Positions 3,696-26,947 of a DNA stretch of 64,000 nt are shown here, piece by piece. How positions within the stretch are numbered: position 1 is the first letter of the stretch; each line of letters begins with the position of its first letter. A model generated the notes under the pieces. That model made no database searches, was not told where the DNA came from, and saw only the letters and a program-made list of their open reading frames with translations. The stretch spans positions 2,800 through 66,799 of the forward strand of contig JACQXY010000049.1 of NCBI GenBank assembly GCA_016208485.1, read 5' to 3'. The position numbers were made by a program, and so were the translations under genes. Source of the stretch: Acidobacteriota bacterium. GTDB taxonomy: Bacteria > Actinomycetota > AC-67.

Positions 3696-4472
3696 TCAGA
3701 TGGTCATGACCCAGAGAGCGGGGATGGCGCCCCACTCATCGGCACCAACTCTCAGCTGGCATTGCCACAACCCTTCGGTGGGCTCGGAGACGTAGATCCA
3801 TGGCGAGTACCCAATCGCCTCGTATTCCTGCCCCTCAGGACCGCTCACCTCGGCCCAACCCAACTCCGTGCCGAACGCGGCGAACAGATAGCCCTTCGTG
3901 GAGAACTCGTAGGTCTGTACAGCCTCCAGCGACACTCCCCACAACGCGCCAACCGGCCCCATGAGGGCTGCGGCGCCCCCGTGGAAATCGGTCGGGAACG
4001 CATACACAGCGTGGCCAAGCGGCTTCGGAGTTGACGACACCAGAACCCCGCTCACCTCCACGCGGCAACGGATCTCCAGCCCCCATCCCGCCCACGCCGC
4101 TCGAAGAACGGCCGCGCTTCCACCCGTGCTCCCGACTCCCGAGAAAGCGTTGGCAGGTACCGTCCCCTCATGTTCTGCCATGGTCCCGGACCATCCCATC
4201 TCCCCCACTTGCCAGCCAGCGAGAGAGTCCGTCGTGCCGAAGTCCGGAAAAAAGGCCGCCTCGGTGACCCGACCCGAGGTCTCCGTCACCGTCATGGCGA
4301 AGAACCCGGCAGTTGTGCCAGAACTCGGGCTCCTTCGGCACGTCAGGCTGAACTCGGTCGCCGGTGGAAGCGCTGTTTCCACCGCCTCGAAAACACTCGC
4401 GGTGCGAGGCGCAATCCCTGAGAGGGAACTCGTCGGCGTAAGCGCCATGACGAGACTCGTGGTCACGATCAT
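3696..4472 (-). CDS. Secreted hypothetical protein
   Basis: ORF 3696-4523, with the start chosen at the internal Met giving MIVTTSLVMALTPTSSLSG (signal-peptide-like). The mature part is Gly/Thr/Ala-rich with no recognisable domain. It lies in the same minus-strand operon as the large secreted proteins. Confidence 0.5.
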   Translation of the reverse strand: MIVTTSLVMALTPTSSLSGIAPRTASVFEAVETALPPATEFSLTCRRSPSSGTTAGFFAMTVTETSGRVTEAAFFPDFGTTDSLAGWQVGEMGWSGTMAEHEGTVPANAFSGVGSTGGSAAVLRAAWAGWGLEIRCRVEVSGVLVSSTPKPLGHAVYAFPTDFHGGAAALMGPVGALWGVSLEAVQTYEFSTKGYLFAAFGTELGWAEVSGPEGQEYEAIGYSPWIYVSEPTEGLWQCQLRVGADEWGAIPALWVMTI

Positions 4473-13528: not shown

Positions 13529-13561
13529 GTTACTTGACAGTAACTTACCAATGGGTAATAT
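13529..13561 (+). promoter_or_regulatory. 16-bp perfect palindrome (probable TetR operator) overlapping a near-consensus promoter in the TetR / acyl-CoA dehydrogenase divergent region
   Basis: GTTACT-TGAC-AGTAAC at 13529-13544. TTGACA at 13534-13539, then 16 nt, then TAATAT at 13556-13561. The segment is locally AT-rich and its GC3 is non-coding. Confidence 0.4.
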
Positions 13562-13563
13562 AC

Positions 13564-14244
13564 GTGTCCGAGGAGCCGGAGTCAAGGGAGCGAGCCGGTG
13601 GCCGCAAGGCGCCCGGCTCCACGGAGGGGGGATCGAGTCTGGCCGCGCGCCGCCTGAGCGCGGAGGCACGCCGCGCGCAGCTCCTCTCTGTGGCGCGCGA
13701 CGTCTTCGCCGCCGACGGCTACCACGGCGCCGCGATGGAGCAGATCGCCGGGCGCGCGGGGGTCACCAAGCCGGTCCTCTACCAACACTTCGCCGGCAAG
13801 AAGGAGCTTTACCTCGCCCTGCTCCAGGAGGAGATGGGGCGGCTTCACGCCCACGTGTCGGCCGCGATCGAGAACGCCTCGGGCAACCGCGCGCGGATCC
13901 AGGGCGGCGTCGCGGCCTACTTCCGCTTCATCGAGGCGAACGAGGGATCCTTCCATCTCCTGTTCCGCGAGACGATGGGCGCCGACCCGGACTTCCGCGC
14001 GATGGTCGAGCGCTTCCGGGACGCGGTGTGCCTGGAGATCGCCGCGATCATCGGCGCGGAGACCGGGCTCCGGGGCGAGGAGGCCGAGCTGCTCGCGCGC
14101 GGGGCGATGGGGATGGCCGAGTCGGCGGCGCAGTGGTGGCTCGAGCGGCGCGAGGGCATCGTCCTCGACGAGGTCGTGAGGGACCTGAGCGAGCTCGCGT
14201 GGCGGGGACTCGCCGGCCTGCCGCGCGCCGGCGGCGAGACGTGA
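13564..14244 (+). CDS. TetR-family transcriptional regulator
   Basis: The HTH region is RRAQLLSVARDVFAADGYHGAAMEQIAGRAGVTKPVLYQHFAGKKELY. The track ORF begins at a TTG inside the palindrome, where GC3 is low. A GTG at 13564 is the first in-frame start with coding-like GC3. The start remains uncertain. Confidence 0.7.
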   Translation: MSEEPESRERAGGRKAPGSTEGGSSLAARRLSAEARRAQLLSVARDVFAADGYHGAAMEQIAGRAGVTKPVLYQHFAGKKELYLALLQEEMGRLHAHVSAAIENASGNRARIQGGVAAYFRFIEANEGSFHLLFRETMGADPDFRAMVERFRDAVCLEIAAIIGAETGLRGEEAELLARGAMGMAESAAQWWLERREGIVLDEVVRDLSELAWRGLAGLPRAGGET

Positions 14245-15107: not shown

Positions 15108-18100
15108 CTACTCTCCCCCTCCGGAGATCGCCGCGCGCCCGACCGAGAAGTACCGGGCCTCCGGGTGGTGCACGATGATCGCGCTCGTGGACTGCTCGGG
15201 CGCGAGCTGGAACTCCTCCGACAGCCTCACGCCGATCCGCTCGGGCTCGAGCAGCTCGAGGATCTTCTTCTGATCCTCGAGGCCGGGGCAGGCGGGATAG
15301 CCGAAGGAGTACCGGCAGCCGCGGTATCCCGCCTTGAGGATCCCCTCCACCGTCGCGGCGTCGAGTCCCGCGATGCCGAGCTCCTCGCGAACGCGCCGGT
15401 GCCACATCTCCGCGAGAGCCTCGGCCATCTCGACCGACAGCCCGTGCAGATACAGGTAGTCGGTGTATCGGTCGGCGCGGAACAGCTCCGCTGCGACCTC
15501 GCTCGCGCGCGGCCCCATGGTGACCACCTGGAGCGCCACGACGTCGCGCTCCCCGCTCTCCACCGGGCGGAAGAAGTCGGCGATGCAGAGGCGCCGCCCG
15601 CGCGACTGGCGCGGAAAGCCGAACCGAGCGCGCTCGCGGCCGTCGTCGTCATACACGATCAGGTCGTTGCCCTCTGACGCGCAGGCGAAGTAGCCATAGA
15701 CCACGGCCGGGGCGAGGATGCGCTCCTCCACCGAGCGCGCGAGCACGTCCCGCAACACCGGGTCCATCGTACGGGCCAGGGACGCCTCGAACTCCTCGGC
15801 CGACTGGCCCCGGCGCCGGCGCACCTGCCACCGGCCCTGGTAGAGGGAGACCCGATTGAGGTAGCGGGCGACCTCCTGGATCGACAGCCCCGCCGCGATC
15901 CGGCTCCCATGGAACGGGGCATGGGGGACCTGGACGTCGATCGCGACGTCCGACCGCCGCGCGCCGGCCGCCGCCGCCGGCCGCCGAGCCCGCCTCGGCC
16001 GCGGCGCCGCCTCCACGGGGGCAGCCGCCTCGCCCCGCTTCTCGGCCATGAGACCGTCCATGATCCGAAGGCCCTCGAAGGCGTCCCGGCCGTAGAAGAC
16101 CCTGCCCCGGTAGAGCGCGCGCAGATCGTTCTCGACGTACGCGCGCGTGAGGGCCGCCCCCCCGAGCAGAACGGGGTAGCCGTGCAACCCGCGCCGGTTC
16201 ATCTCCTCGAGATCTTCCCGCATCACGACCGTCGACTTCACCAGCAACCCGGACAGCCCGATCGCGTCGGCGCCTGCGCGCTCGGCCGCCTCCACGATCG
16301 CGCCGATCGGTTGCTTGATCCCGAGGTTCTCCACCGAGTAGCCGTTGTTCGTGAGGATGATGTCCACGAGGTTCTTCCCGATGTCGTGAACGTCGCCCTT
16401 CACGGTCGCGAGCACGATCCGGCCCTTCGACCCGTCGCCGGCGCGCTCCATGTGCGGCTCGAGGTGGGAAACCGCGACCTTCATCGTCTCGGCCGACTGC
16501 AGCACGAACGGGAGCTGCATCTCCCCTGAGGCGAACTGCTCGCCGACGAGCTTCATGCCGGGGAGCAGGAAGCGGTCGATGATCTCGAGCGCCGGGTGAT
16601 CGGCGAGCGCGTCGTCGAGGTCGGCCTCGAGCCCCTTCCGGGCGCCGTCCACGATCCGGCGCGTGAGGCGCTCGGCGAGCGGCAGCGCCGACAGCTCCTC
16701 CTCCCCCGCGCCGGTCCGGGTCCCCGACACCCCCTCGAACAGGACGATCAGCTCCGCGAGCGGGTCGTAGCCCTCCCGGCGGCGGTCGTAGACCAGGTCG
16801 AGCGCGACTGCGCGCGCGCGCTCCTCTATCCGGTGCGTCGGCAGGATCTGCCCCGGGTGCATGATGGCCATGCTGAGGCCGCGCGCGACGGCCTCGTGCA
16901 GGAACATCGAGTTCAGCGCCTGCCGGGCGGCCGGAGACAGCCCGAAGGAGACGTTGGAGACCCCGAGGCTCGTGAAAGAGTCGGGGAACTCCTCGCCGAG
17001 CGCCGCCACGGCGTCGAGCGTCTCGAGCGCCGCGCGCCTTCCTTCCTCCATCCCCGTCGAGATCGGCAGCACGAGCGGATCGAAGATCAGGTCGTGCGGC
17101 TCGAGCCCGTATTCGCCGGTCGCTACCTCGAACACCGCGCGGCAGGCGTCGAGCTTGCGCGCTCGTGTCGTCGCCTGGCCCCGTTCGTCGATCGCCATGG
17201 CGATCACGGCCGCGCCGAACCTGCGCGCGAGGCGCAGCGTCCGGTCGATCCGCGATCCGGGTCCCCGCCCCTCTTCCAGGTTGATCGAGTTGATCACCGG
17301 GCGCCCGCCGATCAGCTTCAGTCCGGCCTCGAGCACCGAGGGCTCGGTGGAATCGAGGAACAGCGGGAGCGTGACCTGGCTCCGCAGCTCCGATACGACC
17401 GCAGCCATGTCGGCGACCCCGTCCCGCCCGGTCATGTCCACCGAGATGTCCAGGCCGTGCGCGCCCTCGCGGACCTGCTCTTTGGCGACCTCGACCGCGT
17501 GATCCCAGTCGCCCGCCTCCACCAGACCGCGGAACCGCTTCGAGCCCTGCGCGTTGCACCGCTCGCCGACCACGAAGAAGGAGGTCTCCTGGCGCAGCGG
17601 CTGCGCGATGTAGAGCGAAGCGCACGCCGGCTCGAACTGGGGCGCGCGGTGCGGGCGCGGCCGGTCGCGCAGGGCCTCCGCGAGCCGCCGGATGTGCTCG
17701 GGGGTCGTCCCGCAGCACCCGCCGACGACGTTCGCGCCGAACTCCTCCACGAACAAGCGGTGGTGGGCCACGAACTCCTCCGGCGTGAGCGAGTAGACGG
17801 TCCGCCCGTCGCGCACTTCCGGGAGACCCGCGTTCGGGAGCACGCTCACGAACTTCCTCGAGTGCGCGCAGAGGTAGCGCACGTGCTCGGTCATCTCGAC
17901 CGGGCCGGTCGCGCAGTTCAGCCCCACGACCTTCACGATCCCGAAGGGTTCGATGGTCGCCAGCGCCGCCCCGATCTCCGAGCCGAGCAGCATCTGGCCG
18001 GTCGCCTCGACCGTCACCTGCACGATCACGGGGAGATGCGTGCGCGATTCCTCGAACGCCCCCGCGACCGCGGCGATCGCCGCCTTCACCTGGAGAAGGT

Positions 18101-18575
18101 CGTACGCGGTCTCGATCACCAGCGCGTCCACGCCACCCTCGATGAGGCCGAGCGCCTGCGCGCGGTAGGACCGCTCCAGATCATCGAAGGTCGCCTGCCC
18201 GAGCGATGGCGCCTTCGTTCCCGGGCCGATCGACCCGGCGACCCAGCGCGGCCGGTCGGAGAAGGAGGAGGCGGCCTCGCGCGCGAGGCGCGCGGCGACC
18301 ACGTTCAGCTCGTGGACGCGGTCGCCCATCCCGTACTCGTCCTGGACGAGCGCGTTCGCCCCGAATGTGTTCGTCTCGATGCAGTCGGCCCCAGCCTCGA
18401 GGTAGGAGGCATGGATCGCGCGGATCACGTCGGGCCGGGACAGAAGAAGCACCTCGGAGTTGCCCTCGTGGCCCCAGTAATCGTCGACCGAGAGGCCGCG
18501 GGCCTGGATCTCGGTGCCCATGGCGCCATCAAAGATCAGGACGCGCTCGTCGAGCGCCTCGAGGAACGTGCTCAT
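15108..18575 (-). CDS. metH: Cobalamin-dependent methionine synthase
   Basis: Start at the internal Met giving MSTFLEALDERVLIFDGAMGTEIQARG (Hcy-binding domain). Followed by pterin-binding, B12-binding (GDVHDIGKNLV) and AdoMet-activation domains over ~1155 aa. The first 83 codons of the track ORF are leader, not coding. Confidence 0.95.
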   Translation of the reverse strand: MSTFLEALDERVLIFDGAMGTEIQARGLSVDDYWGHEGNSEVLLLSRPDVIRAIHASYLEAGADCIETNTFGANALVQDEYGMGDRVHELNVVAARLAREAASSFSDRPRWVAGSIGPGTKAPSLGQATFDDLERSYRAQALGLIEGGVDALVIETAYDLLQVKAAIAAVAGAFEESRTHLPVIVQVTVEATGQMLLGSEIGAALATIEPFGIVKVVGLNCATGPVEMTEHVRYLCAHSRKFVSVLPNAGLPEVRDGRTVYSLTPEEFVAHHRLFVEEFGANVVGGCCGTTPEHIRRLAEALRDRPRPHRAPQFEPACASLYIAQPLRQETSFFVVGERCNAQGSKRFRGLVEAGDWDHAVEVAKEQVREGAHGLDISVDMTGRDGVADMAAVVSELRSQVTLPLFLDSTEPSVLEAGLKLIGGRPVINSINLEEGRGPGSRIDRTLRLARRFGAAVIAMAIDERGQATTRARKLDACRAVFEVATGEYGLEPHDLIFDPLVLPISTGMEEGRRAALETLDAVAALGEEFPDSFTSLGVSNVSFGLSPAARQALNSMFLHEAVARGLSMAIMHPGQILPTHRIEERARAVALDLVYDRRREGYDPLAELIVLFEGVSGTRTGAGEEELSALPLAERLTRRIVDGARKGLEADLDDALADHPALEIIDRFLLPGMKLVGEQFASGEMQLPFVLQSAETMKVAVSHLEPHMERAGDGSKGRIVLATVKGDVHDIGKNLVDIILTNNGYSVENLGIKQPIGAIVEAAERAGADAIGLSGLLVKSTVVMREDLEEMNRRGLHGYPVLLGGAALTRAYVENDLRALYRGRVFYGRDAFEGLRIMDGLMAEKRGEAAAPVEAAPRPRRARRPAAAAGARRSDVAIDVQVPHAPFHGSRIAAGLSIQEVARYLNRVSLYQGRWQVRRRRGQSAEEFEASLARTMDPVLRDVLARSVEERILAPAVVYGYFACASEGNDLIVYDDDGRERARFGFPRQSRGRRLCIADFFRPVESGERDVVALQVVTMGPRASEVAAELFRADRYTDYLYLHGLSVEMAEALAEMWHRRVREELGIAGLDAATVEGILKAGYRGCRYSFGYPACPGLEDQKKILELLEPERIGVRLSEEFQLAPEQSTSAIIVHHPEARYFSVGRAAISGGGE

Positions 18576-18647
18576 GGCCGGGATTGTAGCGGCCCAGTCC
18601 GGCTCCCCCCCGCCGCACTCCGCCGGATGGATAGCGAGCCAATCCAC

Positions 18648-18800
18648 GGCGGAAGGGACGTTCAAGAGCGAGGAGATAATCCCTGTGGGAGGGCCTCCAG
18701 AGAGTACAAGTCGGCCCATTGACCCATTGGGGCTCCTGGCATATCGTGCGAGTAGGGGGAACCTGCGCGACGGGCCCGGCTGGGGGCGGTGTTCTATCGT
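18648..18800 (+). promoter_or_regulatory. Conserved ~150-nt promoter/leader element, copy 1: GGAGGGCCTCC palindrome, then 20 nt, then TTGACC, 17 nt, TATCGT, plus the first ~45 nt of the transcript
   Basis: About 78% identical to 21318-21470. It has the same palindrome, spacing and -35/-10 architecture. It lies upstream (plus strand) of the secreted-protein gene at 18959 and overlaps the divergent metH upstream region. Confidence 0.4.
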
Positions 18801-18958
18801 CGAGATCCACGCAGAGGTCCCCAAGACAGCTTATCGGTCCGCCACCGAAGTGCTGTACCGGGTGGAACGGGAACTGCTCGCGCTGCTTGGGCGTTTGGCG
18901 CTGCCCGAGAGAAGGGAGGGAGCGAGAAGGGGGAAGACGCAAGCGGAGAGGAGGAGTC

Positions 18959-19453
18959 ATGAAGAAGCTCGCACTGCTCGTGGTGCTTCTGTGGTTGGTC
19001 CCGGCGACTGCCCTCGCGAGCCCAACCCCGGTGCTCGGCACGGGTGGGGAGGCGGTGGGTTCAAGGGGGAGCGAAGTCACTACGTGCAACGCCCGAGTCG
19101 AGATGATCCTTGACGAGCTGACCGAGGACCTGTCGCCCCCGCAGGTCCGGGGGAAGGTCTCGGCCTTCGCCACGGGCACCTGCATCGGTACCGCCCGCGT
19201 AACGCCGTACGCGACCGACGTGCATATCTACGTAGCAGGAGTGGAGATCGACAAGTACACGTGTCTCGCGAGCTTCAAGTGTGGTGCCGAACCGGTCTCC
19301 TTCACGGTGCCTGCCGGAAGTCTGGTCACCGCGACGAGCGACCAATATTGGGACGTGACTGCGGGGGGAGCCTGGAACGCCGCGACACCCCGCTATTGCT
19401 CGATCAAGAACCCCCGCGTCTGGTGCGGGGCCTACGCGGCGGCGACCCCGTGA
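18959..19453 (+). CDS. Small secreted hypothetical protein (164 aa, 5 Cys)
   Basis: The ATG at 18959 is preceded by GGAGAGGAGGAG. The signal peptide is MKKLALLVVLLWLVPATALASP. No known domain was recognised. Confidence 0.6.
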   Translation: MKKLALLVVLLWLVPATALASPTPVLGTGGEAVGSRGSEVTTCNARVEMILDELTEDLSPPQVRGKVSAFATGTCIGTARVTPYATDVHIYVAGVEIDKYTCLASFKCGAEPVSFTVPAGSLVTATSDQYWDVTAGGAWNAATPRYCSIKNPRVWCGAYAAATP

Positions 19454-20097
19454 AGCCGCGCTGGGTGGGATGCGCCTGCCTTCTGGTTCTTGCCACCGCG
19501 CTGCCGGCAGGCGCATCCGCCCGGCGCCTGGAGGTCCGCGGCAACCTCTGGTGGTCCGGGACGATTCACGCTCCGGGCAAGATCTCGATCCAGCAGATCT
19601 CGGCGCGCCCGGTTCGGACCGAGGGATGCTTCCTGATGGACAGGACCAAGGCATACGGCGGGTATCGCGGTTCCATGGGCGGGTATTCGCTCTCTACCAG
19701 TCCCCACTCCCCCAGCGACGGCGGCGTCGGGGCAGAGTATTACGACCGGAGCTCCTGGGAGGTCTTCATCTTCTGCGTCTCGGAGGCGCCGGCGCGCACG
19801 ATCCTCGAAGTGGAGGGCCGCGTCACAGGGGCGCGCTGGGGACGGGACGGGATCCTCTTCCGGCGGGAATGGGACCTTGCTCCGACGCCGGTGCACGGGC
19901 AGTGGCGACCCGTGGTCTTTCGCCGGGGAGCGGTGGCTTGGCTCATGCCGAACGAACAGCCGACGATCTTCTCGATCGACGGGGAAACCTACGTCGGGAG
20001 CGCAAAACTGCGGGGAGAGCCACCGGGCACCCGAGTCTTCGGGGTTCAGGCGACGGCGGCCCCGGTGATGCTCGCGGCCGTAGACCAGGTCTGGTGA
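19450..20097 (+). CDS. Secreted hypothetical protein (215 aa)
   Basis: The GTG at 19450 overlaps the upstream TGA (GTGA coupling). The N-terminus is VKPRWVGCACLLVLATALPAGASA (signal peptide). The track ORF starts earlier, but in a region overlapping the previous gene. Confidence 0.55.
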   Translation: MKPRWVGCACLLVLATALPAGASARRLEVRGNLWWSGTIHAPGKISIQQISARPVRTEGCFLMDRTKAYGGYRGSMGGYSLSTSPHSPSDGGVGAEYYDRSSWEVFIFCVSEAPARTILEVEGRVTGARWGRDGILFRREWDLAPTPVHGQWRPVVFRRGAVAWLMPNEQPTIFSIDGETYVGSAKLRGEPPGTRVFGVQATAAPVMLAAVDQVW

Positions 20098-20111
20098 GGC
20101 CGGAGGAGCTG

Positions 20112-20483
20112 CGCCGGTTCCGCCACCTGGAGGAGGTCGTAGGCGGTCTCGATGAGGATCGCGTCGACGCCGCCCTCGATCAGGCCGAGCGCCTGCGCGC
20201 GGTAGGACCGCTCCAGATCATCGAAGGTCGCCTGCCCGAGCGAGGGCGCCTTCGTGCCGGGGCCGATCGACCCGGCGACCCAGCGCGGCCGGTCGGAGAA
20301 AGCGGATCGCATCAGGCCGGGAGAGGAGAAGGACCTCGGAGTTGCCCTCGTGGCCCCAGTAATCGTCGACCGAGAGGCCGCGGGCCTGGATCTCGGTGCC
20401 CATGACTCCATCAAAGATCAGGACGCGCTCGTCGAGCGCCTCGAGGAACGTGCTCATGGCCGGGATTGTAGCGGCCCCCGCTT
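20112..20483 (-). pseudogene. Duplicated, internally deleted 5' fragment of metH (start codon plus about 120 codons plus 26 nt of leader)
   Basis: The nucleotides are near-identical to metH 18100-18600, including catggccgggattgtagcggccc. A ~165-nt internal deletion corresponds to metH 18290-18455. The translations MSTFLEALDERVLIFDGVMGTEIQARG... and ...FSDRPRWVAGSIGPGTKAPSLGQATFDDLERSYRAQALGLIEGGVDA are in two different frames. Confidence 0.8.
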
Positions 20484-20580
20484 GGGCTCCTGTCTCCTTA
20501 CTCACTCCCACTGCGGTCCCTTGGTGGCACATGGATGGCTAGGTGACACTTCACCGCCTGAAGTAGTACGCTGGCACTCG

Positions 20581-20907
20581 ATGGAACAAGAGTCCAGCCG
20601 AGTCACCGTGGGCCCGAAAGGGCGGATCGTCATCCCGGCACGCCTGCGTGAGCGCGCCCACGTCACCGAGGGCTCGGTTCTGTACGGGCGCGTCGACGAA
20701 GCAGGGCGGCTGATCCTGGAGACCAGAGACTCGATCAAGGGGCGAATCCGCGCGGCCGCAAAGACGAGCGCCCACAGGGAGGGGAGCGTCGTGGACCGGC
20801 TCCTCACCGAGCGCCGGTCCGAGGCGCGTCTGGCCGAACGCCGAGTCCGGCGGGGCCCGACCGCGCGCCGGCTCGACGCCGAGCCCCGGAGCCCCCGGCG
20901 CCGATGA
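20581..20907 (+). CDS. vapB: AbrB/MazE (SpoVT-AbrB)-type antitoxin
   Basis: VTVGPKGRIVIPARLRERAHVTEGSVLYGRVDEAGRLILE is a swapped-hairpin AbrB fold motif. Its stop overlaps the toxin start (ATGA). Confidence 0.7.
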   Translation: MEQESSRVTVGPKGRIVIPARLRERAHVTEGSVLYGRVDEAGRLILETRDSIKGRIRAAAKTSAHREGSVVDRLLTERRSEARLAERRVRRGPTARRLDAEPRSPRRR

Positions 20908-21299
20908 CACCCGAAACAGTCGTGGTCGACGCGTCGGCCGTGCTCGCGTGGATCTTCGACGAGCGTGGAGCCGAGGTCGTCGAGGGGGTTCTCCCCACTT
21001 CCGTTCTCTCGGCGGTCAACTTCGCGGAGGTCCTCTACTGCGCATCGGACGAAGGCATGGACGCGAGTTCGCTGGCACGGGACCTCGTGGCCTTCGGAAT
21101 CCAAGTCGTCCCGTTCACCCAAGCCGAGGCCGCCATCGTCGAGTCGTTGCGCGCCCGCGCGAGACCGCGAGGCGTGCGGCTCTCCCTGGCCGACTACTGC
21201 TGCCTGGCGACCGCGGTGCGCCTCGACCTCCCCGTCATGGGGGCCAACCGGGCATGGCGCGCCCTGGACGCCGGCGTCGAGGTTCGTCTGCTGAGGTAG
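20904..21299 (+). CDS. vapC: PIN-domain toxin (VapC ribonuclease)
   Basis: The N-terminus is MTPETVVVDASAVLAWIFDE (first acidic residue). ...VNFAEVLY... and ...LADYCCLATAVRLDLPVMGANRAW match the PIN conserved acidic quartet pattern. Confidence 0.8.
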   Translation: MTPETVVVDASAVLAWIFDERGAEVVEGVLPTSVLSAVNFAEVLYCASDEGMDASSLARDLVAFGIQVVPFTQAEAAIVESLRARARPRGVRLSLADYCCLATAVRLDLPVMGANRAWRALDAGVEVRLLR

Positions 21300-21317
21300 C
21301 CGCCGGGCGTCGCCGAG

Positions 21318-21470
21318 ACGGGCGGCCGGGAGATCGACGGCGGAAGAGGCGTTCCAGGGCGAGCGATGATCCCGGTGGGAGGACCTCCAGACAGCACAAG
21401 TCGACCCATTGACGCATTGAGGCCGTGCCCATATGGTGCGGCTAGGAGAATCTCGGAGAGAGGCCCGGTC
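21318..21470 (+). promoter_or_regulatory. Conserved promoter/leader element, copy 2: GGAGGACCTCC palindrome, then 20 nt, then TTGACG, 17 nt, TATGGT
   Basis: Homologous to 18648-18800. It lies upstream (plus strand) of the secreted-protein gene at 21726, with an apparent 5' UTR of about 280 nt. Confidence 0.4.
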
Positions 21471-21725
21471 GGGGTGGCATTCCCGTGTCGGGTCCCTTGG
21501 GCGGTGGGAGTGTCCACTTCGATGGGCCACAACCGGTCCGTGACCTCAGAGCGCAGTGCACCGAGTCCTCTGGCATCCGACTCCGGCGCCCTCTCCCCCA
21601 AGCCCCCCCCACAGCCCGGCGGGCCCGTCGGGTAGGAGGTCACTCAGCCGTTCCGCACGGACGAGGACCGCCCCGCACGGAGACCTGCCGACCCGTGTCC
21701 GTCCTCAAGGCGAAAGGGGCATGCC

Positions 21726-22199
21726 ATGCGAAGGACCTCCCTCCTCATCCTGGCAACAACGGCCGTCTTGCTCGTAGGGGTGCTACCGGCTGCCGCCGGT
21801 CCCACCTCGAGCATCACCAACCCACGCAACTACGTGGCCGCAGCCCTTGGAATCGGCGGAACTCTCCCGGGACCCACGCTCGCCGTGGAAGGCCACGCCA
21901 CTGGAGTGCTCACGAGCCCGAACACGGTGCAGGTCATCGTGGAGTGCAACGCGGTCGCGCTGCCGGGAGCCACGCTCGGCGGCTGGACGCCCGTCGCCGT
22001 CCCGCTCGCAACCGCGATCACCAAGTGCTACGTGTGGAGCGAGGCAGGGGGATCCGCCTACGCGCCCTCTCTGGGACTTCCCGGCGCGGTTGCGGCAACG
22101 GCCGGAACAAAGAATGTCGGGCTCGGGGTGCTGCACGTCGTTTGCGAAGGCAAAGCGCTCTTCTCGGACGGCCGGACGGTACCCGGCAGCTGTAAGTAG
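21726..22199 (+). CDS. Small secreted hypothetical protein (157 aa)
   Basis: The ATG follows aaagggg. The signal peptide is MRRTSLLILATTAVLLVGVLPAAAGP. The mature part is Ala/Gly/Thr-rich with 4 Cys. Confidence 0.55.
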   Translation: MRRTSLLILATTAVLLVGVLPAAAGPTSSITNPRNYVAAALGIGGTLPGPTLAVEGHATGVLTSPNTVQVIVECNAVALPGATLGGWTPVAVPLATAITKCYVWSEAGGSAYAPSLGLPGAVAATAGTKNVGLGVLHVVCEGKALFSDGRTVPGSCK

Positions 22200-22385
22200 G
22201 GGGCCCTTCGAGGCACCGCCCGCGAAGCGGCCGCTGGGGTTGGACTCCCCGGGGAGCGGCGACAGCACCGGCCCTGGGGAGATCCAGCCGGAGGGCGAGC
22301 GGATCGCCAAGGACGGTTCGGCGCGCAGGCAAGGAGGGAACGACATGCGCAAGCGAAGAAGCTCAGCCCTGATCGTCGAAGCGGG
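22199..22385. repeat. Upstream element of tandem paralog 1: a ~190-bp direct repeat containing AGGAGGGAACGAC-ATG (MRKRRSSALIV...) in a frame different from the downstream domain
   Basis: Near-identical to 23228-23420. Each copy begins immediately after the stop codon of the preceding gene (gtagggg). Confidence 0.7.
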
Positions 22386-22445
22386 GGCGGAGCGGTCCCG
22401 ACCCTCGGGGCGATCAACAAAATCACCGCCGCCAGCACGAGCTTC

Positions 22446-23225
22446 ATGCGGGTGCGCATCCCCGCCCCATCGACCGTGTCCAATGAACCCGAGGGAAACC
22501 TCGACATCTCGATCGAAGGGTCGGGCCGCTTCAAGGGCCTTGTGCTCGTTCAGGATGTGCCCCCTGACGACCAGACCATCCTGGTCGCGGTGCGCGTGCC
22601 TGAGGACGCCCTCTGCGGCGCAACGTACTGCCCCGCCACTCCGCTGGTCGCCACGGAGGCCTGGGGGCCAGGCGCGGAGCTCGTGGTGGGGGAGCAGCTC
22701 CCTCTTCCGGCCGGCACCTACCGGCTCTACGTCATGGCAGAGGGCGGACCGGTCTCGATCACCCTCCGCCTGCACGGCCTCACGGGCAGCACATCCCTGC
22801 GCCCGACGAAACCCGCCCGCCTCTTCGCTTGGGACTGGAAGCCCAAGGTTCCGATGAGTCCCTACCAGCTTGTCTTCTCGGACTGGGCCACCTTCGACAT
22901 CGGCCGGGAGCAGATCGACGGCACCCTCCTCTGGAGGGTGAACAGCCCGGTGCTCGGCCCGAATAGAACCCAGAGGTGCTTCTACGTGACCAACCCCGAC
23001 CCGCCGGTCGGCTTCCTGCCGGGCTGCCCGTATGCCGACATGACGCTCACCATGAACTGGTGGTTCGTCGGGACGATCCCCTACGCGTCCCTTTCCTTCG
23101 CCACCGGACGGGTCTATGGTCCCCCGAGTCCCCCCATGCGTGAGAGCATAGCAATCTGGTCGGAGGCGGCCTCGCCGGTCGAGAAGATCGGCGGGATCGG
23201 CTTCTCCCTCACCCTTCGGGAGTGA
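22446..23225 (+). CDS. Hypothetical cytoplasmic protein; tandem paralog 1 (259 aa). The N-terminus is uncertain
   Basis: GC3 is high only in this frame. Conserved with paralog 2 from DISIEGSGRFKGLVLVQDVPPDD through ...GPNRTQRCFYVTNPDPPVGFLPGCPYADMTL.MNWWFVG.IPYASL. The ATG at 22446 is the only canonical in-frame start. No signal peptide. Confidence 0.6.
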   Translation: MRVRIPAPSTVSNEPEGNLDISIEGSGRFKGLVLVQDVPPDDQTILVAVRVPEDALCGATYCPATPLVATEAWGPGAELVVGEQLPLPAGTYRLYVMAEGGPVSITLRLHGLTGSTSLRPTKPARLFAWDWKPKVPMSPYQLVFSDWATFDIGREQIDGTLLWRVNSPVLGPNRTQRCFYVTNPDPPVGFLPGCPYADMTLTMNWWFVGTIPYASLSFATGRVYGPPSPPMRESIAIWSEAASPVEKIGGIGFSLTLRE

Positions 23226-23227
23226 GC

Positions 23228-23420
23228 TCACACTGTGTAGGGGGCGCTTCGAGGCACCGCCCGCGAACCGGCCGCTGAGGTTGGACTCCCCGGGGAGCGG
23301 CGACAGCACCGGCCCTGGGGAGATCCAGCCGGAGGGCGAGCGGATCGCCAAGGACGGTTCGGCGCGCAGGCAAGGAGGGAACGACATGCGCAAGCGAAGA
23401 AGCTCAGCCCTGATCGTCGC
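23228..23420. repeat. Upstream element of tandem paralog 2 (second copy of the ~190-bp direct repeat)
   Basis: Aligned with 22199-22385. Relative to copy 1, a ~126-bp deletion downstream of it removes the segment carrying the copy-1 ATG. Confidence 0.7.
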
Positions 23421-23462
23421 CCCGACATCTCGATCGAGGGCCCCGGCCGCTTCAAAGCCCTC

Positions 23463-24152
23463 GTGGTCGTTCAGGATGCACCCTTTGACGACCGAACCAC
23501 GCTCATCGCCGTAGGGGTGCCGGCCGGCGCCCTCTGCGGCCCAACGTACTGCCCGGCCACTCCGGAGGTCGCCACGAACACCTGGGGGCCAGGGGCGGAG
23601 GCCTCGGCGGAGAAGCAGTTCCCTCTCCCGGCCGGCCCCTACCGGCTCTACGTACTGGCGGAGGGCGGACCGGTCTCGATCACCCTCCGCCTTCACGGCA
23701 TCAGGGGCAGCGCGTCCCTGCGCCCGACGAAACCCGCCCGTTTCTTCCTCCATGATTGGAAGCCCCGAGTCCCGATGAGTCCCTACCAACTCGCCTTCTG
23801 GGACTGGACCACCTTCGACATCGGCCGGGAGCAGATCGACGGCACCCTCCTCTGGAGGGTGAACAGCCCGGTGCTCGGCCCGAATAGAACCCAGAGGTGC
23901 TACTACGTGACCAACCCCGACCCGCCGGTCGGCTTCCTGCCGGGCTGCCCGTATGCCGACATGACGCTCGCCATGAACTGGTGGTTCGTCGGGGCGATCC
24001 CCTACGCGTCCCTTGCGTTCGCCACCGGCATGGTGGGCGGCGACCTCACACCTGGGAGCGTGGCCTTCACACGTGAGAGCGTGGCCCTCTGGTCGTATGC
24101 GGCCTCGCCGGTGGAGAAGCTCGGCGGGATGTTCTTCTCCCTCACCCTCTGA
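23463..24152 (+). CDS. Hypothetical protein; tandem paralog 2 (possibly N-terminally truncated)
   Basis: The GTG at 23463 is the first in-frame start. Frame-0 similarity to paralog 1 continues upstream of it (DISIEGPGRFKALVVVQD), but there is no start codon there. Confidence 0.5.
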   Translation: MVVQDAPFDDRTTLIAVGVPAGALCGPTYCPATPEVATNTWGPGAEASAEKQFPLPAGPYRLYVLAEGGPVSITLRLHGIRGSASLRPTKPARFFLHDWKPRVPMSPYQLAFWDWTTFDIGREQIDGTLLWRVNSPVLGPNRTQRCYYVTNPDPPVGFLPGCPYADMTLAMNWWFVGAIPYASLAFATGMVGGDLTPGSVAFTRESVALWSYAASPVEKLGGMFFSLTL

Positions 24153-24208
24153 TGCGACCCGGCGCGGACGCCGTTCGCCCGCCCCCGGACGCCGAGGCGT
24201 CCGGGCAA

Positions 24209-24747
24209 CTACGCCGGCCGATTCTCCTCGGAGATGTCGGCGAGCACTGGGTTCCCCCGGTCGCGCTCGGATAAGTGCGGCTCCCCGGGAGGCCAGGCGA
24301 TCCCGAGCGCCGGATCGTCCCAACGGACCCCCAGCTCGTCGGAGCCGTCGTAGTAGTCGTCCGCCAGGTAGACGAGCGTAGCATCCGTGAGCGCCCAGAA
24401 GCCGTGCGCCACCCCCGGCGGCACGTACAGGCCACCCGCCGCCTCACCGTCCAGCTCGAAGCTCTCGCTCGCCCCCCTCGTCGGCGAGGACTCCCGGAGG
24501 TCGTAGAGCCCTGCGAGCATCCGGCCGGTGATGACCGTCACGTAGTCCGCCTGGAACAGGTGGTAGTGCATCCCCCGCAGGACGCCGGCCCGCGAGTCGC
24601 TCCGACTCCCCTGGACCATCTCGCGCGCGCCGGGGATCCAGGAACGGCGGAAGGCCTCCACGAAGCGCCCGCGCGCGTCGGGCCACTGCCCGGGCCGAAC
24701 GTGGTAGACCCCGGAGATGCGCGCGGACTCCCAGACCTCGGCCACGG
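24209..24747 (-). CDS. rmlC: dTDP-4-dehydrorhamnose 3,5-epimerase
   Basis: ISGVYHVRPGQWPDARGRFVEAFR..., ...GVLRGMHYHL.QADYVTVITG..., ...VPPGVAHGFWALTD... are cupin RmlC motifs. The start is set at a GTG (VAEVW), because the track ORF extends into the 16S spacer. No rmlA, rmlB or rmlD adjacent. Confidence 0.75.
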
Positions 24748-24892: not shown

Positions 24893-26719
<1,827 letters not shown>

Positions 26720-26947
26720 CCTCCATCGAGTTCTCACTCAGACCGGCCGGAGCCGGCCAGGTTTGATCTCTATGCAAGGCGTTACTTCAGGCGCCCACTC
26801 TCTGCGGATCCCTCGGCCCGCTCACGCGAGCCTCAGGAGTGCGTGTCCTCGCTATGCAGTTTTCAAGGCGCAAGCATGCCAAACTCCAAGCCCTACCCGG
26901 TCTTGGGGTCTGGCGAACTTTCAAGGCCGCCTCAGACGACCGCCGCT

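Follow-up and report, generated by a model that had tools for sequence, protein, structure and literature searches.

Two homologous stretches with predicted sigma-70-type promoters in a lineage-specific genomic island next to metH

Introduction

In the 64-kb window analysed here (the whole stretch of 64,000 nt, positions 1-64000, from a metagenome-assembled genome, MAG), an intergenic stretch next to the methionine gene metH has a second, diverged copy further along the same contig. The initial annotation described both copies as one promoter/leader module with a small palindrome, and proposed that a shared regulator or a cis-acting RNA controls a small regulon of secreted proteins by means of this module. 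It also named a source for the similarity that involves no regulon, namely a duplicated piece of the metH upstream region. The question raised by this locus is therefore whether the repeat is a dedicated regulatory element or a product of the history of the DNA around metH. Table 1 gives an overview of the features that are referred to in the following.

Table 1 Features of the metH-rmlC region (positions of the window)
Feature	Position	Strand	Remarks
metH	15108..18575	-	1155 aa; database protein copy 100% identical, also 1155 aa
Island	18596..24208	.	lineage-specific, between metH and rmlC; holds modules 1 and 2, g1, g1b, metH', vapBC, g2, g3, g4
Module copy 1, conserved core	18642..18733	+	92 nt; about -112 to -21 from the predicted start; palindrome and -35 inside
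Palindrome, copy 1	18688..18698	.	GGAGGGCCTCC; 11 bp; centred ~61 nt upstream of the predicted start
Predicted promoter 1	18719..18747	+	TTGACC, 17-nt spacer, TATCGT; predicted start near 18752-18755
Leader 1, start	18748..18800	+	weak similarity to copy 2; fold neither stable nor shared
g1 (HY775_08515)	18959..19453	+	164 aa, Cys-rich, signal-peptide-like N-terminus
g1b	19450-20097	+	follows g1; GTG start overlaps the g1 stop
metH' pseudogene fragment	20124..20477	-	codons about 1-52 and 103-163, plus 20 nt upstream of ATG; 150-nt internal deletion
vapBC cassette	20543..21332	+	~790 nt, between metH'-proximal spacer and module 2; vapB 20581-20907, vapC 20904-21299
Module copy 2, conserved core	21333..21423	+	palindrome GGAGGACCTCC at 21378-21388
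Predicted promoter 2	21409..21437	+	TTGACG, 17-nt spacer, TATGGT
g2 (HY775_08540)	21726..22199	+	157 aa ORFan, signal-peptide-like N-terminus
rmlC (dTDP-4-dehydrorhamnose epimerase)	about 24209-24747	-	right border of the island

Results

Extent and uneven conservation of the repeat

In a BLASTN comparison of the 64-kb window with itself, 18642-18750 and 21333-21440 formed an alignment of 110 nt (82% identity, E = 2e-20). Under permissive scoring the alignment extended to 18610-18785 and 21300-21474, with 73% identity over 177 nt. The two stretches are homologous; the initial annotation had given ~78% identity over ~150 nt. The copies are offset by 2689-2691 nt, 18648 corresponding to 21339, and the interval 21318-21470 originally given for copy 2 was about 20 nt out of register.

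Conservation is distributed unevenly over the repeat. The two cores differ at 14 of 92 positions (p = 0.15, 85% identical), while divergence in their flanks is much higher (p = 0.42-0.59), and a permutation P of 0.0017 was obtained for a 59-nt window as conserved as this, relative to the non-coding flanks. The conservation of the ~75 nt upstream of the -35 equals or exceeds that of the promoter hexamers. A degenerate 36-nt pattern reaching from the palindrome through the -35, GGAGGNCCTCCAGANAGNACAAGTCGNCCCATTGAC, matches the window exactly twice, at 18688 and 21378, with 0 matches expected, and neither pattern scan nor BLASTN found a third copy of the module in the 64 kb. A core that is better conserved than its flanks would be compatible with a region bound by a regulator. 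Nevertheless, the core has not diverged significantly less (0.15) than four-fold sites in metH (0.20; Fisher P = 0.39), and selection on the core is thus indicated only by the comparison with flanks that are poorly alignable. A gene-conversion patch in the core could mimic selection.

Downstream of the core, the -10 neighbourhood CATAT(C/G)GTGCG is identical between the copies at 10 of 11 positions. Further on, identity falls to ~54% over 18760-18800, with indels, and the similarity fades by ~18800, i.e. inside the leader. A conserved transcribed leader of ~45 nt, as had been described at first, is thus not what the alignment gives; the similarity in this part is weak.

A search for terminal repeats at the ends of the module and of the island found none, and only two copies of the module are known. 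On these two grounds an origin as a MITE or as an insertion-sequence end was rejected.

Predicted promoters of the two copies

The motif TTGAC(C/G)-17-TAT(C/G)GT named by the initial annotation was confirmed in both copies. The hexamers and the length of the spacer have been kept despite a scrambled spacer, in which 7 of 17 bases differ and six consecutive mismatches occur at 18734-18739. In each promoter the hexamers match TTGACA plus TATAAT at 9 of 12 positions. These are the only sigma-70-like matches within 18000-22500, where 0.2 are expected, and they account for two of the three matches of TTGAC-N18-TANNNT in the whole window (0.07 expected). Matches of this strength are very rare in the window DNA with its G+C content of ~70%. 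The 16S promoter of the same organism is canonical (TTGCGC-16-TATACT). From the -10 elements it is 211 nt to g1 and 288 nt to g2; both promoters are intergenic and co-oriented with these genes, both genes have Shine-Dalgarno sequences, and no terminator was found downstream of the promoters before the genes. Taken together, the rare and strong hexamers, the kept spacing, the canonical 16S promoter and the Shine-Dalgarno genes reached without an intervening terminator favour a functional promoter. The best reading of each copy is a plus-strand promoter of the sigma-70 type, which in copy 2 would start transcription at about 21442-21445.

Elsewhere in the window, at 13534-13585, two near-consensus promoters are arranged back to back and divergently (TTGACA-16-TAATAT on the plus strand, TTGACT-17-TATATT on the minus strand).

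The module copies are collinear with metH and a metH fragment

The surroundings of the two copies had been regarded as unrelated, which does not hold on the left side. A duplicate of the 5' part of metH precedes module 2 on its left side, with order and orientation as for metH and module 1: 18087-18269 corresponds to 20124-20306 (92%) and 18420-18595 to 20302-20477 (95%). The homology continues weakly but collinearly through the spacer, from 18596-18634 to 20478-20542, by way of the short matches GGCTCC, CACTCC and GGATGG(A/C)TAG. The duplicated unit thus comprises the 5' end of metH, the spacer, the core, the promoter and the first few tens of nucleotides of the leader. This collinear homology into the neighbouring features is interrupted in copy 2 by the 150-nt deletion and by the vapBC cassette. 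The similarity of the modules does therefore travel with a fragment of metH, and to this extent the alternative named in the initial annotation applies.

The differences between metH and metH' are not those of a copy that decayed in place. Third codon positions hold 17 of the 22 differences, a bias with a binomial P of 3e-5 against one third and of 0.001 against the share of ~0.43 that we estimated for neutral decay of a copy in place, next to a gene under constraint. At the codon level, 14 changes are synonymous and five are conservative (V/L, L/I, S/A, V/A, A/V); codon 18, for instance, has Val in metH' where metH has Ala. Divergence amounts to 13/65 at four-fold sites (0.20) and to 5/226 at the first and second positions (0.022). 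No selection for MetH function can act on a gene fragment, and this bias therefore implies that metH' diverged within a functional metH and was truncated later. According to this, a single metH-flanking region is present in two versions, the modules, and these are not independent insertions of a regulatory cassette. The source of metH' could be a paralogue or an allele of a related lineage.

On the other side of module 1, metH carries signals of its own. A TACAAT box is found at 18591-18586 on the minus strand, 10 nt before the ATG of metH, which has no Shine-Dalgarno sequence; in relatives, TACGAT or TAGAAT is found at a comparable place before metH (L122 and L123, about 3980-4000). The metH mRNA is probably leaderless or very short-leadered, and the boxes of the relatives suggest that this applies across the clade. 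Given this box of its own and its counterparts in relatives, metH can do without the module. The core could nonetheless be a regulatory site for the divergent metH, upstream of it and inherited with it in both versions, and this role has to be weighed. The core stayed linked to the 5' end of metH during a divergence under purifying selection, and in copy 1 it occupies positions 67-158 upstream of the ATG. Such a role is improbable in view of the -10 box at 10 nt from the ATG, a type of box that is conserved in relatives lacking the island. In addition, the core of copy 2 has been parted from metH' by an insertion of ~790 nt, and relatives with rmlC-metH gaps of 28-129 nt show no module-like sequence.

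The island between metH and rmlC

Four relatives, the nearest ones examined (L122-L125), have rmlC upstream of metH in the same orientation, at a distance of 28-129 nt. The corresponding gap in the window is 5.6 kb. As rmlC adjoins metH in all four of these relatives, the 5.6-kb block is an insertion, i.e. a lineage-specific island. The closest MetH is only 71% identical, and neither the island nor any module-like sequence was found in the relatives. tRNA genes, integrases and terminal repeats that could mark the island or the cassette were sought and none was found.

Pfam and PADLOC gave no matches for the cargo proteins apart from VapB (MazE_antitoxin, MazE/AbrB-type) and VapC (PIN). The two ORFs for small secreted proteins assigned downstream of the copies, at 18959 and 21726, are present, and each has a signal-peptide-like N-terminus. 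In a search of 5.8 billion clusters the only homologues of g1 were three paralogues (P0002-P0004), all from the same MAG. The four members of this family, which is confined to this MAG, are Cys-rich and share the near-invariant C-terminus WNAATPxxCSIKNPRVxCGAYAAxTP. For g2, nothing beyond the self match was retrieved among the 5.8 billion clusters. A duplication of the whole operon, with g1 and g2 as paralogues, was rejected, the proteins having no similarity (BLASTP E = 1.2).

The distal part of the island contains a second repeat. A 183-nt intergenic sequence occurs at 22196-22378 and at 23237-23419 with 98% identity, upstream of the paralogues g3 and g4, the coding parts of which are only 82-86% identical. 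It ends with a strong AAGGAGG Shine-Dalgarno sequence and an ATG (22346 and 23387; MRKRRSSALIV) that is out of frame with g3 and g4. About 120 nt of g3 (about 22379-22499) are missing from g4, and the minus strand of this part encodes a textbook signal peptide (MRTRMKLVLAAVILLIAPRVGTA). None of the inversions of any segment between 22370 and 22480 restored a continuous ORF from the ATG at 22346. The 5' end of g3 may be scrambled or inverted, or g3 and g4 may be pseudogenes.

As the source is a metagenome-assembled genome, the contig might join two strain variants of one locus, in which case the two modules would be alleles in different cells. In line with such an artefact, metH and metH' share an identical run of 70 nt at which the Logan contigs break, and the pattern of differences in metH' would fit an allele of a second strain. 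The g1b/metH' junction (20097-20124), on which the tandem arrangement depends, is indeed documented by this MAG contig alone; L009 and L010, the Logan contigs, have their first base 30 nt before 20477 and so do not reach it. Both contigs are, however, 100% identical to the window across vapBC, module 2 and g2, and two independent assemblies of independent read sets thereby reproduce exactly the order metH'-vapBC-module 2-g2. Furthermore, 150 nt are deleted inside metH', and the fragment breaks off sharply at 20124, facing the stop of g1b, at a junction that shares no sequence with metH; a k-mer mis-join would not produce this. We regard an assembly artefact as improbable.

Palindrome and regulon

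The palindrome reported for both copies, with the same gap of 20 nt between its end and TTGAC, was confirmed by pattern scan. The exact palindrome GGAGGNCCTCC occurs in the 64 kb only at 18688 and 21378; the central base is its sole difference between the copies, and the symmetry stops at 11 bp (5-N-5). Since the copies are homologous by descent, the shared position of the palindrome is weak evidence for an operator.

For a wider search, the pattern GGAGGNCCTCC-N-CC(C)ATTGAC, which combines palindrome and -35, was scanned in GTDB species genomes, JGI metagenomes and IMG/VR. It gave 8 matches in the GTDB species genomes, 111 in the JGI metagenomes and 4 in IMG/VR. Around these 8 + 111 + 4 matches BLASTN and nhmmer found no further similarity to the module, which marks them as chance matches. 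A second pattern, ACAAGTCGNCCCATTGACNCATTG, had 0 matches in IMG/VR. No regulator gene was found in the island; the VapB antitoxin is the only DNA-binding protein there, and nothing links it to the palindrome site.

A regulator shared by both copies is possible. The stronger proposal is that the palindrome or the whole 90-nt core is the operator of a dedicated regulator, in a class-I-like position, by which operons for secreted proteins would be co-controlled genome-wide. The better conservation of the core than of its flanks speaks for this, as do the palindrome that was kept except for its central base, its identical spacing to the -35, the signal-peptide proteins encoded downstream of both copies, and the three g1 paralogues on other contigs. 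Set against these points, no more than two copies are known, which share a common descent along with the metH fragment; an 11-bp palindrome of the form 5-N-5 without extension is short for a dimeric regulator, and the island is without a regulator gene. A regulon of small secreted proteins, as first envisaged, finds no support, because a third copy appeared neither in the window nor in GTDB species genomes, JGI metagenomes or IMG/VR, and we consider such an element unlikely.

RNA element

The second mechanism proposed for the repeat is a cis-acting RNA. Rfam gave no match at the gathering threshold in the region, and at E ≤ 10 the 4227 families returned only eukaryotic or viral noise for both loci. 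Compared with shuffled sequences, the two leaders had fold z-scores of +1.4 and +1.0, and the core on the two strands had +0.5, -0.3, +0.7 and +0.85. In an alifold prediction from only two sequences, the shared pairs were few and incoherent, with no coherent covariation. Long 5' untranslated regions of about 205 and 282 nt, with some similarity over the first 40-50 nt, would leave room for a leader RNA or small RNA (riboswitch, attenuator) in the conserved transcribed part or in the core. However, 0 of 4227 Rfam families matched at E ≤ 10, the z-scores lie between -0.3 and +1.4 and thus show no excess fold stability, identity of the leaders is merely ~54%, no terminator follows, and the best-conserved part is located upstream of the -10 and would not be transcribed from this promoter. 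A cis-acting RNA is unsupported by these data and extremely improbable.

Codon phase of the differences in the core

One property of the core is not predicted if it is purely a promoter or an operator. Six consecutive differences between the copies (18678, 18684, 18693, 18702, 18705 and 18714) are spaced by multiples of three (permutation P ~0.02, post hoc). All six are synonymous in a minus-strand reading, S-MGRLVLSGGPPTGII, from the ATG at 18719-18717 that overlaps the -35; in copy 1 this reading runs in frame into metH. In the plus-strand reading (I/M)IPVGGPP(E/D)STSRPID, 4 of the 6 are synonymous.

The single codon phase of the six differences, and their being synonymous in 6/6 (minus) or 4/6 (plus) cases, could reflect a short protein-coding stretch, or the remnant of one, hidden in the core as one of these two peptides. 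Several findings argue against this. A 1-nt indel at ~18673 breaks the frame after 15-16 codons, whereupon the peptides diverge; a usable Shine-Dalgarno sequence or leaderless signal in both copies was found on neither strand; the plus frame starts with ATG in copy 2 and with ATA in copy 1; and the spacing of locus tags suggests that no gene was called there in the annotation of the MAG. Finally, an 83-aa minus-strand ORF searched with HMMER against 1.84 billion representatives gave two matches, both to internally repetitive proteins. With its frame broken, no shared start and no real homologues, the core does not have the properties of a small protein-coding gene. We give the three-base periodicity, which alone favours a gene, low weight as an oddity, and judge a coding role very improbable.

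The 16S gene and the taxonomic setting

Beyond the island, a 16S rRNA gene is encoded on the minus strand at 24899-26729. It contains a group I intron of ~287 nt near its 3' end (about 24943-25229; Rfam RF00028, 74 bits, E = 5e-17) with the junctions ...GAAGTCGT/AACCCAG...CACGCG/AACAAGGTAGCC...GGATCACCTCCTTT, slashes denoting the boundaries. In our own numbering, the insertion point is after the equivalent of E. coli U1498. Introns in bacterial 16S genes have been reported mainly from Thiomargarita and CPR lineages, and a group I intron in the 16S gene of an actinobacterial-type MAG may be worth a look of its own. Group I introns of bacteria and rRNA insertions in CPR lineages are subjects of reviews (PMC3984707, PMC11270868). 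No 23S rRNA, 5S rRNA or tRNA genes were found in the window (1-64000), and rmlC directly follows the 16S gene. The 16S gene thus appears to be unlinked from the rest of the rRNA operon. The NCBI label of the MAG is 'Acidobacteria bacterium'. The close relatives of its MetH that bear a name (at most 71% identity) are all Actinomycetota MAGs, and the DNA has a G+C content of ~70%; the label is probably wrong.

Discussion

Taking the evidence together, the modules are probably a duplicated and diverged island edge bearing a sigma-70-type promoter, i.e. two versions of the metH-flanking region that now stand in tandem. The module would be the metH-proximal edge of the island, consisting of the promoter and ~90 nt of conserved upstream DNA and reading away from metH into orphan genes for secreted proteins. 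The second version may have come in, or been retained, along with a metH that still functioned while the two diverged, either as a paralogue or as an allele of a related lineage acquired by recombination; the present order would have come about by tandem stacking or recombination. The second metH would later have been cut down to a fragment of 350 nt and split from its module by insertion of vapBC. Copy 1 of the promoter would most likely serve the g1-g1b operon, and copy 2 g2 and possibly g3-g4. The repeat is neither a new RNA family nor a demonstrated regulon. It is an ordinary by-product of rearrangement in a genomic island.

A more speculative reading, to which we assign a low probability, retains a function for the core. 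Core and the palindrome at -61 might form an 'expression platform' that borders an exchangeable island, where a lineage-specific regulator switches on whichever cassette for secreted proteins has recombined behind it, or the DNA might be of dual use and also encode a micro-peptide of 15 residues. If there is such a platform, the g1 paralogues elsewhere in the MAG should be preceded by further copies, and the micro-peptide would explain the three-base periodicity of the substitutions in the core. If the core does bind a dedicated regulator, it would offer a handle on the expression of orphan secreted proteins in an uncultured, deep-branching actinobacterial lineage. Otherwise the finding has little reach beyond this genome; it shows that a promoter-bearing island edge can be duplicated along with the scar of a flanking housekeeping gene. 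For a two-copy 'regulatory module' in a MAG, collinear homology of the flanks should be checked before a regulon or an RNA element is proposed.

Among known systems, the riboswitches and leader RNAs of methionine genes (SAM, SAH and cobalamin elements in Rfam) come to mind, as the element lies in the upstream region of metH and has a long untranslated leader. In contrast to these, it has neither a covariance-model match nor excess fold stability, its conserved part lies on that side of the promoter which is not transcribed, and no methionine genes follow downstream.

Promoters of class I depend on activators bound upstream, e.g. at CRP sites centred at -61.5, and sites of the CRP type span 16-22 bp. 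The dyad element described here is likewise centred ~61 nt upstream of the predicted start, with the same spacing in both copies. Unlike CRP-type sites, however, it comprises only 11 bp (5-N-5), and a third promoter with this element was not found.

The copies also resemble ordinary sigma-70 promoters that have been copied by segmental duplication or paralogy. They have TTGAC(C/G), a 17-nt spacer and TANNNT, are intergenic and upstream of genes with Shine-Dalgarno sequences, and their number is explained by a duplicated flank that includes part of the neighbouring gene. They differ in that ~75 nt upstream of the -35 are conserved as well and in that the genes downstream are unrelated.

Comparable as well are replacement (flexible) genomic islands, for which conserved flanking genes provide the sites of exchange, and homology-facilitated illegitimate recombination. 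Unlike in such islands, integrase, tRNA and terminal repeats were not found here, and the recombination route is an inference. The likeness lies in the variable orphan cargo between the housekeeping genes rmlC and metH, in the toxin-antitoxin cassette inside, and in a scar of the flanking gene that carries allele-like divergence at its third codon positions.
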